Origin: Escherichia coli | Lineage (GTDB): Bacteria; Pseudomonadota; Gammaproteobacteria; Enterobacterales; Enterobacteriaceae | Assembly: GCF_050920415.1 (NCBI RefSeq) | Contig: NZ_CP169309.1 | DNA length: 64,000 nucleotides | Direction: 5' to 3' (one strand) | Shown: positions 237-48,099 of the stretch, one piece after another | Layout: each line of letters opens with the position of its first letter | Numbering within the stretch: the first letter of the stretch is position 1 | Program-made: the position numbers and the translations under genes | The notes under the pieces: generated by a model | The model's input: only the letters and a program-made list of their open reading frames with translations | Databases searched by the model: none | What the model was told of the DNA's origin: nothing

Positions 237-247
237 GACGGGGTTCA

Positions 248-1900
248 TTACTGCCAGCTCACCTCACCTTTCGGTTCATAGACACTCACATCCAGCGGCG
301 AGCTTTTCTGGATATACGCTTTCAGCACTTCGGCATCAATAAAGCCAGTATTCACATAGCCCGGTTTGTTATCCAGACGCGGATAGCCATCACCGCCAGT
401 GGCATTGAAGTTTAATGTCGCCATACGGTAAGTTTTCGCCGGATCGACCGGTTCGCCTTTGATTTTCAGGTCGTTCAGTTTGCCGTCTTTCGCCACAAAG
501 CTAACGTTGGCAAATTGCGGATAGGCACCAGAATCAGGCTTCATTTGTGCGACGGCGGTCAGGTAATCAATCACCTCTTTACCGGTCATGTCGGCATACA
601 CCACCACATTGCCGAATGGCTGCACTTTCAGCACATTTTTATAGCTGATATCACCTGCTTCGATAGAATCACGAATTCCGCCTCCGCTCATCACCGCAAA
701 GTCGGCACCAGTGCGATCCATTTGTGCTGCCAGAATCAACCGCCCCATATTGGTCTGTACAAAACGCACTTTGCTGCGGTCGCCTTCCAGACGACCATTG
801 GTTTCGCCTATTTTCACTTCCAGCTGCGCTTTGCCTTTGTTCTGGAAAGGTGATAACAGCGAAATCATTTGCTGGTTTTCGGCGATTTCAGGGGTGTAAA
901 GCACACGCTCGCTTTTCCCGTCTTCCCAGGTCACTTTCTTCTTCAGGTTTACTGGAATCAACTGGTAGTTGACCATTTTCATTTCGCCGTTGCGAAACTC
1001 AAAGTCGGCCCGACCAACGTACTTGCCCCACTCATGCGCCTGTACAATCCAGATGCCATTTTGTTGATCCGGTTTGCATGGCGTACCAGGAACGTAATCG
1101 ACCTGTTTTTTATTTTCTGCCGCCATACAGACTGGATCTTGCGAGTGACCTCCGACGATCATCGCCAGCGATCCGGCAGGCAGCGCGCGTGCCATCTCCA
1201 CATCGCCCGGTGCATTAGAGCCGTGCTCACCGTTGTCGTAATGCCCCATATGGGTCGCCGCGATAATAATGTCTGGCTTTTCTGTCTGTTGCAGCTCCTG
1301 AATCACCAGCTTCGCTTCATCAGCGGGCTTACGAAATTCGATATCAGTGAAATATTCCGGATTACCAATTTTGGCTGTGTCATCGGTTGTCAGCCCAATA
1401 ACGGCAATTTTCAGATCCTGACGCTTAAACAACGCCCATGGTTTAAACAGGCGCTCACCAGTGCTTTTTTGGTAGATATTGGCGGAAAGCAACGGGAACT
1501 TAGCCCACTTTTCCTGCTGGCGTAATACGGTGAGCGGGTTATCAAATTCATGATTACCGATCGCCATTGCATCATAGCCCACCAGATTCATACCGCGAAA
1601 ATCAGGTTCGGCATCCTGTAAGTCGGACTCGGGCACGCCAGTATTAATGTCGCCACCGGAAAGTAGCAGCACGCTACCACCTTCAGCCGCAACCTCTTTG
1701 CGAATACCGTCCACCAGCGTTTTTTGCGCCGCCAGACCATATTCGCCATATTCATTACGCCAGAAATGACCATGATGATCATTGGTATGCAGAACTGTAA
1801 TTTTGTAGGTTTTATCCTGCTCATAAGCCAGAGCAGTTTCACTCGCCAGTGTAAATGTGGTTAACAGTACTAACGCCACGCCCCGCTGCAATAATTTCAT
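248..1900 (-). CDS. ushA: UDP-sugar hydrolase / 5'-nucleotidase, periplasmic (550 aa)
   Basis: Full-length ORF with N-terminal signal peptide and metallophosphatase motifs (HTNDHHG, GNHEFD); protein recognised as E. coli UshA. Confidence 0.93.
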   Translation of the reverse strand: MKLLQRGVALVLLTTFTLASETALAYEQDKTYKITVLHTNDHHGHFWRNEYGEYGLAAQKTLVDGIRKEVAAEGGSVLLLSGGDINTGVPESDLQDAEPDFRGMNLVGYDAMAIGNHEFDNPLTVLRQQEKWAKFPLLSANIYQKSTGERLFKPWALFKRQDLKIAVIGLTTDDTAKIGNPEYFTDIEFRKPADEAKLVIQELQQTEKPDIIIAATHMGHYDNGEHGSNAPGDVEMARALPAGSLAMIVGGHSQDPVCMAAENKKQVDYVPGTPCKPDQQNGIWIVQAHEWGKYVGRADFEFRNGEMKMVNYQLIPVNLKKKVTWEDGKSERVLYTPEIAENQQMISLLSPFQNKGKAQLEVKIGETNGRLEGDRSKVRFVQTNMGRLILAAQMDRTGADFAVMSGGGIRDSIEAGDISYKNVLKVQPFGNVVVYADMTGKEVIDYLTAVAQMKPDSGAYPQFANVSFVAKDGKLNDLKIKGEPVDPAKTYRMATLNFNATGGDGYPRLDNKPGYVNTGFIDAEVLKAYIQKSSPLDVSVYEPKGEVSWQ

Positions 1901-5264: not shown

Positions 5265-5446
5265 CATTGCCGGATGCGATGCTGGCGCATCTTATCCGGC
5301 CTACAGGTGCCACCTTCCGAAGGTCGGATAAGGCGTTTATGCCGCATCCGACTGTCATTGCCGGATGCGATGTTGACACATCTTATCCAGCCTACAGGTG
5401 CCATCTTTCGTAGGTCGGATAAGGCGTTTATGCCGCATCCGACTGT
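5265..5446. repeat. Two tandem 91-bp units of REP/BIME-type palindromic repeats between ybaL and gsk
   Basis: Unit beginning CATTGCCGGATGCGATG repeats at 5265 and 5356 with a few substitutions; contains GCCGGATGCG...CGCATCCGGC-type palindromes typical of enterobacterial REP elements. Confidence 0.85.
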
Positions 5447-12763: not shown

Positions 12764-14695
12764 TCAAATGGGGCGGATACTTTCTTCATCCAGCTCCGCA
12801 TCGAAGAACCGACGCAGGGTCTGAATATTATTATCCGCAATAATGGACTCGCGCGCCTGCGCAAGTTTTTCTTCGTATATCGCCTGACGCCATTCCAGCG
12901 GCGTACGCACCGCGGGATTATCATCTTCAACGATAGTCAGTTCAACCGTTGAACCTTTTAACGTGCTCAACGCTTCAGCCAGTTTTTGCTGTGCGCCGCT
13001 GTTATTCAGATGACGCTGAGAGGAGCGCAAATGCAGACACACCGTGTTGCCGTTCTCCTCTTTCCAGGCATTTAACGCCACCTGTTCGACCAGTTTTGGT
13101 AGCGAAAGTTGACTCACCTGAGCCGCCCACGGGTCGCGCTCAATGGCTTCTGCCGCCAGCTTCGCCGCCAGTTCCGGCGTTTTTTCATGTTCCAGCGCTT
13201 TTTTTAGCGCCTTCGGCGTGGCGACCACTTCTTTTTGCTGCATCACTGGAGTGGTAGCCTTCCAGCGATACGCTTCTTTTTTGGCTGGTGCTTTTTCCAG
13301 CGCCGATGGCACCGGACGCGCCTGAACGCGATCGGTGACCGAAGCCAGTCTTTCCAGCGCAGCGTTATTCACCGGCCGCGCGCGGGTAGCGGCTGCCGGT
13401 TCACTCTTTTTTGCTTTGGTTGCTCCCTGTGCGCGCTGCAGTTGTTGGCGCGCCGCCAGCACCTGGCTGGTGGTTTCTGAGAGCGGTACAGTCGGTGCCT
13501 GCTGCGGAGCTGATTGCGGTTGCGGCGGCACCTGGGTTGGCGTCATTACTGCCGTTGGCGCGACGGGCGCAAAAGACTGGCGTGGCACTTCTGGCTCAGG
13601 CAGCGGCATACGCGGATGAAACGCCAGTGCGCGCAACAGCGTCATCTCAACGCCCATGCGGCGGTCCGGCGCATACGGTAATTCTTTGCGACCAATCAAC
13701 AGCGTTTGATAGTAAAGCTGAATATCCGTCGGCGGTATGGTGCGCGCCAGTTCACGCATCCGCAGCTCGATGGCGGCCATGTCGTTGCCCAGCGCAGCAG
13801 GGGAAAGTTGCACCATTGCAATGCGGTGCAACAGGCCGAGCATTTCTACCAGCAACGCTTCCCACTCAATACCACGAGCGGCGGCTTCATTAATCAGCGA
13901 CATTACACGCTCGCCGTTGGCTTCAACCATCGCTTCAACCAGCGACAGCGCCTGATCGTCGTCAAGCGTACCCAGCATCGCACTGACCGCCTGAGTTGAA
14001 ACCTGGCCGTCACCGCTGGCAATCGCCTGGTCGGTCAGACTTAAGGCATCTCGCAGGCTGCCTTCAGCGGCGCGCGCCAGCAATTGCAGCGCCCGCGGCT
14101 CGTGAGCGATATGTTCTTCGTTGAGGATGTGCTCAAGCTGATGGCGAATTTGCTCGACATCCAGCGCTTTGAGATGAAATTGCAGACAGCGTGACAAAAT
14201 CGTCACCGGCAATTTCTGCGGATCGGTCGTCGCCAGCAGAAACTTGACGTGCTCCGGCGGTTCTTCAAGGGTTTTTAACAGTGCGTTAAAGCTGTGGCGC
14301 GACAGCATATGCACTTCGTCGATCAGATAAACTTTAAAACGACCACGCGCTGGCGCGTACTGGACGTTATCCAGCAGGTCGCGGGTATCTTCGACTTTGG
14401 TACGCGAGGCGGCGTCGATTTCAATCAGATCGACAAAGCGCCCCTGCTCAATTTCACGACAGTTATCGCACACGCCGCACGGCGTCGCGGTAATGCCGGT
14501 TTCGCAGTTTAGCCCCTTCGCCAGCAGTCGGGCGATAGAGGTTTTTCCGACGCCACGGGTGCCGGAAAAAAGATAAGCATGATGAATACGCCCTAACGAC
14601 AAGCCGTTCGCCAGTGCGGTCAGCACATGTTCCTGGCCGACGACGTCAGCAAAGGTTTGTGGGCGCCATTTTCGGGCTAAGACCTGATAACTCAT
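12764..14695 (-). CDS. dnaX: DNA polymerase III subunits tau/gamma (643 aa tau)
   Basis: AAA+ Walker A (GTRGVGKTS) and Zn-binding cysteines; internal A-AAA-AAG frameshift site. Confidence 0.95.
   Translation of the reverse strand: MSYQVLARKWRPQTFADVVGQEHVLTALANGLSLGRIHHAYLFSGTRGVGKTSIARLLAKGLNCETGITATPCGVCDNCREIEQGRFVDLIEIDAASRTKVEDTRDLLDNVQYAPARGRFKVYLIDEVHMLSRHSFNALLKTLEEPPEHVKFLLATTDPQKLPVTILSRCLQFHLKALDVEQIRHQLEHILNEEHIAHEPRALQLLARAAEGSLRDALSLTDQAIASGDGQVSTQAVSAMLGTLDDDQALSLVEAMVEANGERVMSLINEAAARGIEWEALLVEMLGLLHRIAMVQLSPAALGNDMAAIELRMRELARTIPPTDIQLYYQTLLIGRKELPYAPDRRMGVEMTLLRALAFHPRMPLPEPEVPRQSFAPVAPTAVMTPTQVPPQPQSAPQQAPTVPLSETTSQVLAARQQLQRAQGATKAKKSEPAAATRARPVNNAALERLASVTDRVQARPVPSALEKAPAKKEAYRWKATTPVMQQKEVVATPKALKKALEHEKTPELAAKLAAEAIERDPWAAQVSQLSLPKLVEQVALNAWKEENGNTVCLHLRSSQRHLNNSGAQQKLAEALSTLKGSTVELTIVEDDNPAVRTPLEWRQAIYEEKLAQARESIIADNNIQTLRRFFDAELDEESIRPI
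13406..13412 (-). other. Programmed -1 ribosomal frameshift heptamer A-AAA-AAG in dnaX (codons 428-430); the -1 frame reads GAG then UGA, producing gamma
   Basis: Heptamer located in frame by counting codons from the dnaX start; GC-rich hairpin immediately 3' at about 13372-13400. Confidence 0.85.
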
Positions 14696-28164: not shown

Positions 28165-29721
28165 ATGCTGGTGAGAACACGACATCTGGTCGGCCTTATT
28201 TCGGGAGTACTGATTCTTTCAGTATTGCTGCCTGTCGGCTTAAGCATCTGGCTGGCCCATCAGCAGGTAGAAACATCATTTATTGAAGAGCTGAATACGT
28301 ATTCCTCCCGCGTCGCTATTCGGGCCAATAAGGTGGCGACACAAGGGAAAGATGCGCTGCAAGAGCTGGAAAGGTGGCAAGGTGCGGCCTGTAGCGCAGC
28401 CCATCTCATGGAAATGCGTCGGGTATCTTACAGTTATCGCTATATTCAGGAAGTGGTTTATATCGATAACAACGTTCCCCAGTGTTCGTCTCTGGAGCAT
28501 GAAAGCCCGCCCGATACCTTCCCCGAGCCAGGTAAAATTTCGAAAGATGGTTATCGTGTCTGGTTAACATCGCATAACGATTTAGGCATTATCCGTTACA
28601 TGGTTGCCATGGGAACGGCACATTATGTCGTCATGATCGACCCCGCTTCCTTTATTGATATCATTCCCTATAGCTCATGGCAAATTGATGCCGCCATTAT
28701 TGGCAATGCCCATAACGTTGTGATAACCAGCAGTGATGAAATTGCTCAGGGAATTATTACCAGGCTACAAAAAACACCCGGTGAGCATATCGAAAATAAT
28801 GGAATTATTTACGATATCCAGCCCTTCCCGGAGATGAATATTTCGATCATCACCTGGGCTTCAACGAAAATGTTGCAGAAAGGCTGGCATCGGCAAGTCT
28901 TTATTTGGTTACCGCTCGGGTTGGTGATTGGCCTGCTGGCAGCGATGTTTGTGCTGCGTATTTTGCGCCGTATCCAGTCACCGCATCATCGGCTGCAGGA
29001 TGCTATCGAAAATCGTGATATTTGCGTGCACTATCAGCCGATTGTCTCCTTAGCCAATGGCAAAATTGTCGGTGCTGAGGCACTGGCGCGCTGGCCGCAG
29101 ACAGACGGTAGTTGGTTGTCACCAGATAGTTTTATTCCGCTGGCACAGCAAACGGGGCTTTCTGAGCCGTTGACGCTACTGATTATAAAAAGTGTCTTTG
29201 AAGATATGGGCGACTGGCTGCGTCAGCATCCGCAGCAGCATATTTCGATCAATCTTGAATCCACCGTACTCACCTCGGAAAAAATCCCGCAATTGCTGCG
29301 TGAAATGATCAATCACTATCAGGTTAATCCCAGACAGATCGCGCTTGAACTCACTGAACGCGAGTTTGCCGATCCGAAAACCAGCGCCCCGATAATTTCT
29401 CGCTACCGGGAGGCGGGCCATGAAATTTATCTCGATGATTTTGGTACGGGGTATTCAAGTTTAAGCTATTTACAGGATCTGGATGTCGACATTCTGAAGA
29501 TCGATAAATCTTTCGTTGATGCGCTGGAATATAAAAATGTCACGCCACATATCATCGAAATGGCAAAAACACTGAAACTGAAAATGGTAGCGGAGGGAAT
29601 CGAAACCAGTAAACAAGAAGAGTGGCTACGCCAGCATGGCGTGCACTACGGCCAGGGCTGGCTCTACAGCAAGGCATTACCGAAAGAGGATTTCTTACGC
29701 TGGGCCGAGCAACATTTGTGA
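28165..29721 (+). CDS. pdeB: c-di-GMP phosphodiesterase PdeB (YlaB): periplasmic sensor domain plus EAL domain
   Basis: N-terminal TM helix, second TM, C-terminal EAL domain (GAEALARW); start may instead be the GTG at 28171. Confidence 0.85.
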   Translation: MLVRTRHLVGLISGVLILSVLLPVGLSIWLAHQQVETSFIEELNTYSSRVAIRANKVATQGKDALQELERWQGAACSAAHLMEMRRVSYSYRYIQEVVYIDNNVPQCSSLEHESPPDTFPEPGKISKDGYRVWLTSHNDLGIIRYMVAMGTAHYVVMIDPASFIDIIPYSSWQIDAAIIGNAHNVVITSSDEIAQGIITRLQKTPGEHIENNGIIYDIQPFPEMNISIITWASTKMLQKGWHRQVFIWLPLGLVIGLLAAMFVLRILRRIQSPHHRLQDAIENRDICVHYQPIVSLANGKIVGAEALARWPQTDGSWLSPDSFIPLAQQTGLSEPLTLLIIKSVFEDMGDWLRQHPQQHISINLESTVLTSEKIPQLLREMINHYQVNPRQIALELTEREFADPKTSAPIISRYREAGHEIYLDDFGTGYSSLSYLQDLDVDILKIDKSFVDALEYKNVTPHIIEMAKTLKLKMVAEGIETSKQEEWLRQHGVHYGQGWLYSKALPKEDFLRWAEQHL

Positions 29722-29762: not shown

Positions 29763-30116
29763 CTATTCGTCGATGATTGACTCGAATCCGCCATAGATCA
29801 TTCGCTTGCCATCAAACGGCATGGACTCGCCGAACTCCTTCATCCGTGGGTCCGACATCATCTTTTGATTAGCAGCGTCGCGGACCTCTTTTGAAGGGTA
29901 TTCAATCCAGCTAAAGACAACCTCTTCATTCTCTTCCGCTTTCACCGCCATACGAAAATCGGTCACTTTGCCATCCGGTACATCGCTGGCCCAGCATTCG
30001 ACAATACGAAGCGCGCCAAACTCTTTAAACAATGGCGCGGCCTTAGCGGCCATTTCCCGATAGGCATCCTTTTTATCGGCAGGAACGGCAACCACAAAAC
30101 CATCAACATACTTCAT
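29763..30116 (-). CDS. ybaA: Conserved protein YbaA (117 aa)
   Basis: 117-aa ORF at the syntenic position next to ffs. Confidence 0.8.
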   Translation of the reverse strand: MKYVDGFVVAVPADKKDAYREMAAKAAPLFKEFGALRIVECWASDVPDGKVTDFRMAVKAEENEEVVFSWIEYPSKEVRDAANQKMMSDPRMKEFGESMPFDGKRMIYGGFESIIDE

Positions 30117-30226
30117 CAGACATACCTCCGAAGCGTACTGCGCAGCCAGACAATTCTTGCGACGTCAGTTGTGGTTAAAGTTTAGCCATGTTGGGATTTT
30201 TTGACGAAACGGGGGGAGGCAGAAAT

Positions 30227-30340
30227 GGGTGGGGGCCCTGCCAGCTACATCCCGGCACACGCGTCATCTGCCTTGGCTGCTTCCTTCCGGACCTGACCTG
30301 GTAAACAGAGTAGCGTTGCGGGAGAACCAACAGAGCCCCC
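30227..30340 (-). ncRNA. ffs: 4.5S RNA, the RNA component of the signal recognition particle (114 nt)
   Basis: Reverse complement reads GGGGGCUCUGUUGGUUCUCCCGCAACGC...GGCAGGGCCCCCACCC, matching the E. coli 4.5S RNA as recalled from memory, with the conserved GGAA tetraloop region. Confidence 0.93.
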
Positions 30341-30416
30341 ATTGAGAGCGTTGAGAACCAACGCGCAGGCGCATTATCACTGCTGCCCCGGCTAATTGCA
30401 ACCCATTGCGTGCCAG

Positions 30417-30806
30417 ATGCTGGTTTCTTGCGCAATGCGGCTTCACTCGGGCGTTTTTCCAGATTATGCTGAAAAATTACCTCAGGAAGAAAAGATGGAA
30501 AAAGAAGATTCATTTCCCCAACGCGTCTGGCAAATCGTAGCCGCTATTCCCGAAGGCTATGTCACCACTTACGGTGATGTGGCGAAACTGGCGGGATCGC
30601 CCCGCGCCGCGCGCCAGGTGGGTGGTGTGTTAAAGCGTCTCCCGGAAGGCAGCACCTTGCCCTGGCATCGGGTGGTTAATCGCCACGGCACCATTTCGCT
30701 AACCGGACCGGATTTACAGCGTCAGCGACAGGCATTACTGGCAGAAGGTGTGATGGTGTCAGGAAGAGGGCAAATCGACTTGCAGCGTTATCGCTGGAAC
30801 TACTAA
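30417..30806 (+). CDS. atl: Alkyltransferase-like protein Atl/YbaZ (129 aa)
   Basis: MGMT-like fold with PWHRV replacing the catalytic PCHRV (Cys to Trp). Confidence 0.85.
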   Translation: MLVSCAMRLHSGVFPDYAEKLPQEEKMEKEDSFPQRVWQIVAAIPEGYVTTYGDVAKLAGSPRAARQVGGVLKRLPEGSTLPWHRVVNRHGTISLTGPDLQRQRQALLAEGVMVSGRGQIDLQRYRWNY

Positions 30807-30836: not shown

Positions 30837-31409
30837 TTAATATTGCGTAGGAGCCGGAACTGCCGAAGACGGATTCACCTGGGTTGGTGAGGTCGAAGGT
30901 ACGGTAGTCGTTGCGCCACCGCTGGCCTGAACCGGCACGGCGGTTTGCTGCACCGGCACTAATGTCAGGTCCGCTTTGGTCCCGCCCTGGTTGATCACCG
31001 GCTGAACGGTATCGGTGATAAATACCAGTTTGTCATTCACGGTAATCGCCGCACTCAACAGAATACGCGCGTTCGGCTGAACGTCTGCCGGGTTAAATGG
31101 CAGAACAAAGCTGAATGGTGACTGTTTACCTTCAGTACGCACCGCTTTTTGCGCCAGCACTTTTGACGGTGCATCGGCTAATGATGCGTCAGAAAGTGTC
31201 ACGGTCAGCACGGCATCAGGCGGCAGTGCGACTTTCTGACGGATCCAGACGGTACCGGAAACATTCGGTTGCTGGATAGCAGGTTGCTGTGTTGCTGAAA
31301 TAGACGTATTTGCAGCCGGTGCTGGCGTCTGAATATCCGCGCTTTTATCTGCGCAAGCCGCCAACGCAATCGCAACCGCTAAACCACTGGCCATGTGCAC
31401 GAGTTTCAT
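30837..31409 (-). CDS. ybaY: Lipoprotein YbaY (190 aa)
   Basis: Signal peptide with lipobox (LAACA); syntenic position. Confidence 0.8.
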   Translation of the reverse strand: MKLVHMASGLAVAIALAACADKSADIQTPAPAANTSISATQQPAIQQPNVSGTVWIRQKVALPPDAVLTVTLSDASLADAPSKVLAQKAVRTEGKQSPFSFVLPFNPADVQPNARILLSAAITVNDKLVFITDTVQPVINQGGTKADLTLVPVQQTAVPVQASGGATTTVPSTSPTQVNPSSAVPAPTQY

Positions 31410-47912: not shown

Positions 47913-47995
47913 AGAGCTCTCTCTTAGTTTAATTTCCGCCAGGTAATCAGATGACACGACTGTGCTTCACGCCATCTATTAACATGTACGTCAGT

Positions 47996-48024
47996 ATATG
48001 GGGATGTTTCCCCCACATTCAACG
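47996..48024 (-). promoter_or_regulatory. Sigma32 heat-shock promoter of lon: -35 GTTGAATG, 14-nt spacer, -10 CCCCATAT
   Basis: Minus strand reads GGCGTTGAATGTGGGGGAAACATCCCCATATACTGACG. Confidence 0.75.
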
Positions 48025-48037
48025 CCGAGAATAGAGG

Positions 48038-48071
48038 AAAAATTAAAGGGGAGATAAAATCCCCCCTTTTT
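48038..48071 (-). terminator. Hairpin terminator between clpX and lon
   Basis: GGGGAGA-TAAAA-TCCCCCC stem with T-rich flanks on both strands. Confidence 0.6.
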
Positions 48072-48099
48072 GGTTAACTAATTGTATGGGAATGGTTAA

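Follow-up and report, generated by a model that had tools for sequence, protein, structure and literature searches.

The Escherichia coli 4.5S RNA gene ffs and a probably spurious 112-residue reading frame that covers it

The minus strand at 30340..30227 of the window (the whole 64-kb stretch of Escherichia coli DNA that was analysed) is almost certainly the canonical E. coli ffs gene, which encodes the 4.5S RNA of the signal recognition particle (SRP), and the open reading frame (ORF) lying over ffs is, on the same sequence comparisons, almost certainly no gene. The identity of ffs is already known and ordinary. The first-pass annotation had placed a 114-nt SRP RNA at 30227..30340 inside a minus-strand ORF of 112 aa at 30175..30513. 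The ORF is present in the program-made ORF list, and the RNA coordinates are exactly those of the curated mature RNA. The strand shared by the RNA and the ORF had been left unstated. The features of the locus are as follows.

30227..30340, minus strand: ffs, mature 4.5S RNA (SRP RNA), 114 nt; from the identity to K-12 b0455 and the one-hairpin fold
30236..30332, minus strand: RF00169 core of ffs, the extent annotated by PGAP as SRP_RNA; from the Rfam match
30341..30366, minus strand: 5' leader of the 4.5S precursor, with a small hairpin GCGUUG...CAACGC; from the published 5' end and the fold
30373..30401, minus strand: putative sigma-70-type ffs promoter, TTGCAA, a 17-nt spacer and GATAAT, then a G+C-rich stretch; from a consensus scan
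30175..30513, minus strand: ORF of 112 aa with an ATG start, probably spurious; from the program-made ORF list
28165..29721, plus strand: pdeB, the same neighbour as in K-12
29763..30116, minus strand: ybaA (DUF1428), downstream of ffs on the same strand; Pfam PF07237, E = 2.3e-48, and RefSeq ybaA
30495..30806, plus strand: atl/ybaZ (MGMT-family DNA base-flipping protein), divergent from ffs; Pfam PF01035, E = 2.1e-27, and RefSeq 'MGMT family protein'
30837..31409, minus strand: ybaY, neighbour as in K-12

Read on the minus strand, 30227..30340 gives 114 nt (GGGGGCUCUG...GGGCCCCCACCC). Alignment to E. coli ffs, one of two checks proposed in the first-pass annotation, showed that 114/114 bases are identical to ffs of E. 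coli K-12 MG1655 (b0455, 476448..476561), with no mismatch. The other check, against the Rfam small SRP RNA model (RF00169, Bacteria_small_SRP), gave a match at 30332..30236 (-) with 68.1 bits and, for the whole window, E = 5.5e-13; the gathering score is 40. The match spans the full model (positions 1-97 of 97) and is far beyond chance. The assignment to the family rests on this score and on the identity to the characterised K-12 gene. The ffs feature marked in PGAP records is 97 nt long, the span of the Rfam model, compared with 114 nt for the curated mature RNA. The Rfam scan covered the whole window at gathering thresholds and returned four matches in total, a single one of them to RF00169. 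The other three are the sraA sRNA at 47984..48079 (+) with 106.7 bits, the dnaX programmed-frameshift element at 13367..13431 (-) with 94.6 bits, and naRNA4 at 5322..5392 (+) with 63.1 bits, slightly over its threshold of 59.5.

Comparison with K-12 showed two base differences in 271 aligned bases, both outside the mature RNA. The mature RNA, the flanking genes, their orientation, and the promoter and leader sequence are all shared with the K-12 locus, and the gene order pdeB, ybaA, ffs, atl/ybaZ, ybaY, tesB is that of K-12. The window comes from another E. coli strain and is in the reverse-complement orientation, neither of which is a difference of substance. A 501-base query spanning ffs found a match of at least 95% identity in 5424 of the 5426 complete E. 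coli genomes, with two genomes matching the window at 100% over all 501 bases. Among the matches listed, every row carries 'ffs: signal recognition particle sRNA small type', an MGMT-family protein and ybaA. Two of the 5426 'complete' genomes have no megablast match to the ffs region, though ffs is essential.

Some E. coli genomes have two places matching the query, and two matching places are on plasmids, as could be the case if the window match were not the working ffs but a pseudogene or an additional, inactive copy. However, such a copy is extremely unlikely here, because the window ffs lies in its canonical chromosomal context with a mature sequence identical to that of K-12 and an intact promoter and leader, and is the only RF00169 match in the window. 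Moreover, the split in the one two-place genome examined results from an IS3 insertion upstream of ffs and not from a second gene. In E. coli M7424, an IS3-family transposase is located between atl and ffs (246..1459 of the fetched locus, corresponding to ~30457 of the window), ~56 nt upstream of the ffs -35 hexamer, with ffs and ybaA intact and annotated. This insertion explains at least one genome showing two matching places.

The start of atl/ybaZ differs between annotations, with 129 aa in K-12 (from window 30417) and 103 aa in PGAP (from 30495). In Kluyvera a stop codon is positioned one to two codons ahead of the conserved Met of the short form, and thus the short start alone is conserved outside Escherichia. 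The long form, which adds 30417..30494 (+), would run antisense across the ffs promoter.

At minimum free energy, the mature 114 nt fold into one long hairpin (-57 kcal/mol; z-score vs. shuffles, -3.15), with a GGAA tetraloop at ffs nt 53-56. This single extended hairpin carries the apical GGAA tetraloop between conserved internal loops (GGUCAGGUCCGGAAGGAAGCAGCC), as is characteristic of domain IV, and the conserved GUCAGG...GGAA...AGCAGC columns were matched in the cmscan alignment to RF00169. Comparisons of the RNA were made among Enterobacteriaceae loci picked by an exact 34-nt core, and the covariation sample consists therefore of close relatives only. At the pair 27-80, Escherichia has G-C and the Citrobacter group A-U, with G-U as an intermediate in Pluralibacter and Intestinirhabdus. 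Variation is also seen at four more stem positions, three of which keep a standard pair: U7C and U11C turn G-U pairs into G-C and C20U turns C-G into U-G, whereas pairing is lost with U18C in E. whittamii. Position 75, which varies too, is outside the predicted stems. Across seven distinct but very similar ffs sequences, 99.7% of the cells are paired, with one compensatory pair, and 195 of 500 shuffles do equally well, so that covariation among such close relatives is a weak signal. E. coli 00_3230 lacks one base at U7 of the mature RNA, in a G-U pair near the hairpin base (window 30334). The deletion sits at about 481..577 of the fetched locus and may be a true variant or an assembly error.

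The promoter-like site upstream of ffs matches the consensus at 9 of 12 positions, and its -10 hexamer ends 7 nt ahead of the published -26 start (window 30366). Judged by its sequence and position, the segment 30401..30373 probably drives ffs transcription. The RNA-seq 5' ends of the ffs precursor are mostly at -26, with minor ends at ~-127 and ~-153, and an older report cited in the same paper gives a leader of 22 nt (PMC5499578). Removal of the leader by RNase P was confirmed there, and the precursor was found to build up when RNase P is limiting (PMC5499578). The small leader hairpin is present in the fold of the precursor plus downstream sequence, and over 30 related loci the promoter and leader, taken as one segment, show 92% conservation.

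A consensus scan showed no intrinsic terminator downstream of ffs. Folding of the precursor with the sequence beyond it likewise gave nothing 3' of ffs that would pass as a convincing terminator hairpin and U-tract. The single terminator-like match, at 30349..30335, was rejected: it spans the junction of the leader and ffs and is within chance expectation. Conservation across the relatives ends ~10 nt past the mature 3' end. This sharp drop suggests the end of the functional unit, where transcription probably ends.

These observations are consistent with a conventional course of expression. The gene would be transcribed from the sigma-70 promoter at 30401..30373, chiefly from ~30366; RNase P would take off a leader of roughly 22-26 nt, and a few extra 3' bases would be trimmed. 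The 114-nt hairpin, through its GGAA-tetraloop domain IV, would then bind Ffh to form the SRP, which would direct nascent membrane proteins via FtsY. The K-12 4.5S RNA, to which that of the window is identical, binds Ffh and is essential for co-translational targeting (summarised in PMC5499578).

The 112-aa ORF at 30175..30513 is on the same strand (-) as ffs and is thus a sense read-through of the RNA gene. From its start, it crosses the first 19 nt of atl in antisense, the ffs promoter and leader, the mature RNA and 50 bases of the 3' flank. The first nucleotide of ffs is nt 174 of the ORF, a third codon position, and the mature RNA encodes aa 58-96. The last 17 codons are in the 3' flank, and the stop codon is at 30177..30175. 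The stretch MNLLFPSFLPEVIFQHNLEK belongs to the product of this ORF.

Searches of Pfam and NCBIfam at E <= 1 gave no family for the ORF product. Scored by codon log-odds trained on the 27 longest non-overlapped ORFs of the window, the ORF has -0.136 per codon vs. 0.341 ± 0.155 for the non-overlapped ORFs of at least 150 aa in the window, ~3 s.d. lower, and its segment within ffs has -0.421. The GC fractions at codon positions 1, 2 and 3 are 0.56, 0.51 and 0.52 in the ORF, compared with 0.60, 0.40 and 0.59 in the training ORFs. The ATG, at window 30513 (K-12 476275) and thus at -173 from the mature ffs, lies upstream of every published 5' end (-26, ~-127 and ~-153; PMC5499578) and falls inside the atl coding sequence of the opposite strand. 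A GGGGAA abuts this ATG directly, leaving a spacer too short for a good ribosome-binding (Shine-Dalgarno) site. No CDS over ffs is found in the curated K-12 record or among the RefSeq E. coli rows listed.

The reading frame was followed in 29 Enterobacteriaceae ffs loci fetched by the exact 34-nt core pattern and also in five annotated E. coli loci. The length of the same frame ranges from 44 to 211 aa across the 29 Enterobacteriaceae records. E. albertii has a frame of 59 aa and Escherichia sp. MOD1-EC7003 one of 57 aa. In Salmonella the length is 44-53 aa, the locus with 44 aa being truncated on its upstream side; in Kluyvera it is 49-63 aa, and in Citrobacter it reaches 211 aa. Within E. 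coli, the one-base deletion in 00_3230 reduces the ORF to 61 aa and the IS3 insertion in M7424 reduces it to 86 aa; ffs is still annotated in both. The mean identity of the related loci to the window is 0.99 for the mature ffs, 0.92 for the promoter and leader, 0.77-0.78 further upstream, and 0.58 for the 3' flank that holds the last 17 codons of the ORF. The length of this flank differs by +2, +1 or -1 in 14 of 30 loci, that is, by frame-breaking indels.

Could the ORF nevertheless be a real, Escherichia-restricted protein gene that overlaps ffs in sense, forming a dual-function locus? The frame has an ATG start and is intact in K-12, in the strain of the window, in most of the E. coli sampled and in records of several other Escherichia species, and a few public records carry near-identical 'hypothetical proteins'. 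However, neither the intact frame nor these deposited proteins show translation, because near-identical DNA within a species keeps any frame open. The absence of a protein family match, a codon score in the non-coding range and the frames broken in E. albertii, Escherichia sp. MOD1-EC7003 and the two E. coli strains all speak against such a gene, as do the frame-breaking indels outside the RNA and the position of the ATG, upstream of the reported 5' ends and inside the antisense atl. The stop is 50 nt past the 3' end of the mature RNA, in unconserved sequence, and the ORF is absent from the curated K-12 annotation and from the PGAP rows listed. A protein gene of this kind is hence scarcely credible.

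Thus, as far as the sequence comparisons can tell, the ORF at 30175..30513 is an accident of sequence and not a protein gene, and its translation is excluded by inference. The ORF would be open since the conserved RNA and the promoter region happen to lack stops in its frame in this lineage. The advice of the first-pass annotation to drop the protein call in favour of the RNA gene is borne out by the missing family match, the non-coding codon score and the unconserved frame.

A shorter frame of 55 aa begins at the junction of the leader and the mature RNA, with an ATG composed of leader nt -2 and -1 and ffs nt +1, and could be translated as a peptide from an unprocessed or read-through precursor. 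The frame is open in most relatives, most of the 34 loci have the junction ATG (the first in-frame ATG being at core -41), and the precursor accumulates under limiting RNase P (PMC5499578). However, the junction ATG is conserved as part of the RNase P cleavage site and as the first base of the RNA. It has no Shine-Dalgarno sequence ahead (CGCUCUCA, then AUG), is buried at the base of the -57 kcal/mol hairpin and is destroyed by RNase P cleavage. The C terminus of the 55-aa frame lies in the unconserved 3' flank, with stops ranging from +88 to +514. The chance that this peptide exists is considered minute. Equally slight is the chance that a precursor or read-through ffs transcript is occasionally translated, from either the -173 ATG or the junction ATG, into an Escherichia-specific micro-protein; if true, such translation would make ffs a dual-function RNA locus.

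An exact look-up among ~15 billion proteins did not return the 112-aa product. The notion that the ORF had never been called anywhere was rejected, as a homology search gave 37 near relatives. A 98%-identical 'hypothetical protein WRSd3_03293' of 112 aa was deposited for Shigella dysenteriae WRSd3, and the other named entries are likewise 'hypothetical protein'. The 37 entries are 63-193 aa long. Save for a few near-full-length matches, their similarity is confined to aa 19-105 of the ORF, commonly ~27-103 or 55-103, and aa 19-105 are the translated promoter, leader and ffs. Similarity limited to these elements is the signature of translated conserved non-coding DNA. The locus had been described as a typical pitfall for ORF-only pipelines, and the 37 database entries that translate it, a few of them named 'hypothetical protein', agree with that description.

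Among these translations, the first 23 residues of a 143-aa DUF1428 database protein match aa 83-105 of the ORF. This protein resembles a ybaA call drawn too far upstream, into ffs, on some ENA contig. An 86-aa translation of the ffs locus is labelled 'Caudoviricetes sp.', which points to an ffs-like sequence on a contig binned as phage.

AntiFam was built against ORFs that overlap non-coding RNA genes (PMC3308159, PMC9710616). The 112-aa ORF resembles spurious ORFs of this type in that it is called over a structured RNA, its 'homologues' are conserved only over the RNA and its promoter, and a few of them have been deposited as hypothetical. The AntiFam papers PMC3308159 and PMC9710616 make no mention of SRP. 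AlphaFold confidence fails to separate short spurious proteins from real ones (PMC13294457).

Shadow ORFs are abundant in the window: of its 110 ORFs with 100 aa or more, 56 overlap with a longer ORF. The mean codon score of these 56 is -0.032, near that of the 112-aa ORF. Some shadow ORFs reach 410-530 aa, and length alone is thus a poor filter in this genome. What the 112-aa ORF mainly overlaps, unlike the shadow ORFs, is an RNA gene with its intergenic promoter, not a protein gene. Because it overlaps an RNA gene and not a longer ORF, an ORF-only pipeline has no competitor with which to suppress it.

The consequence is one of annotation hygiene only, in that an ORF-only track puts a 112-aa 'protein' on an essential RNA gene. 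The ORF result has no bearing on SRP biology, and masking of RNA genes with Rfam ahead of ORF calling removes the error.
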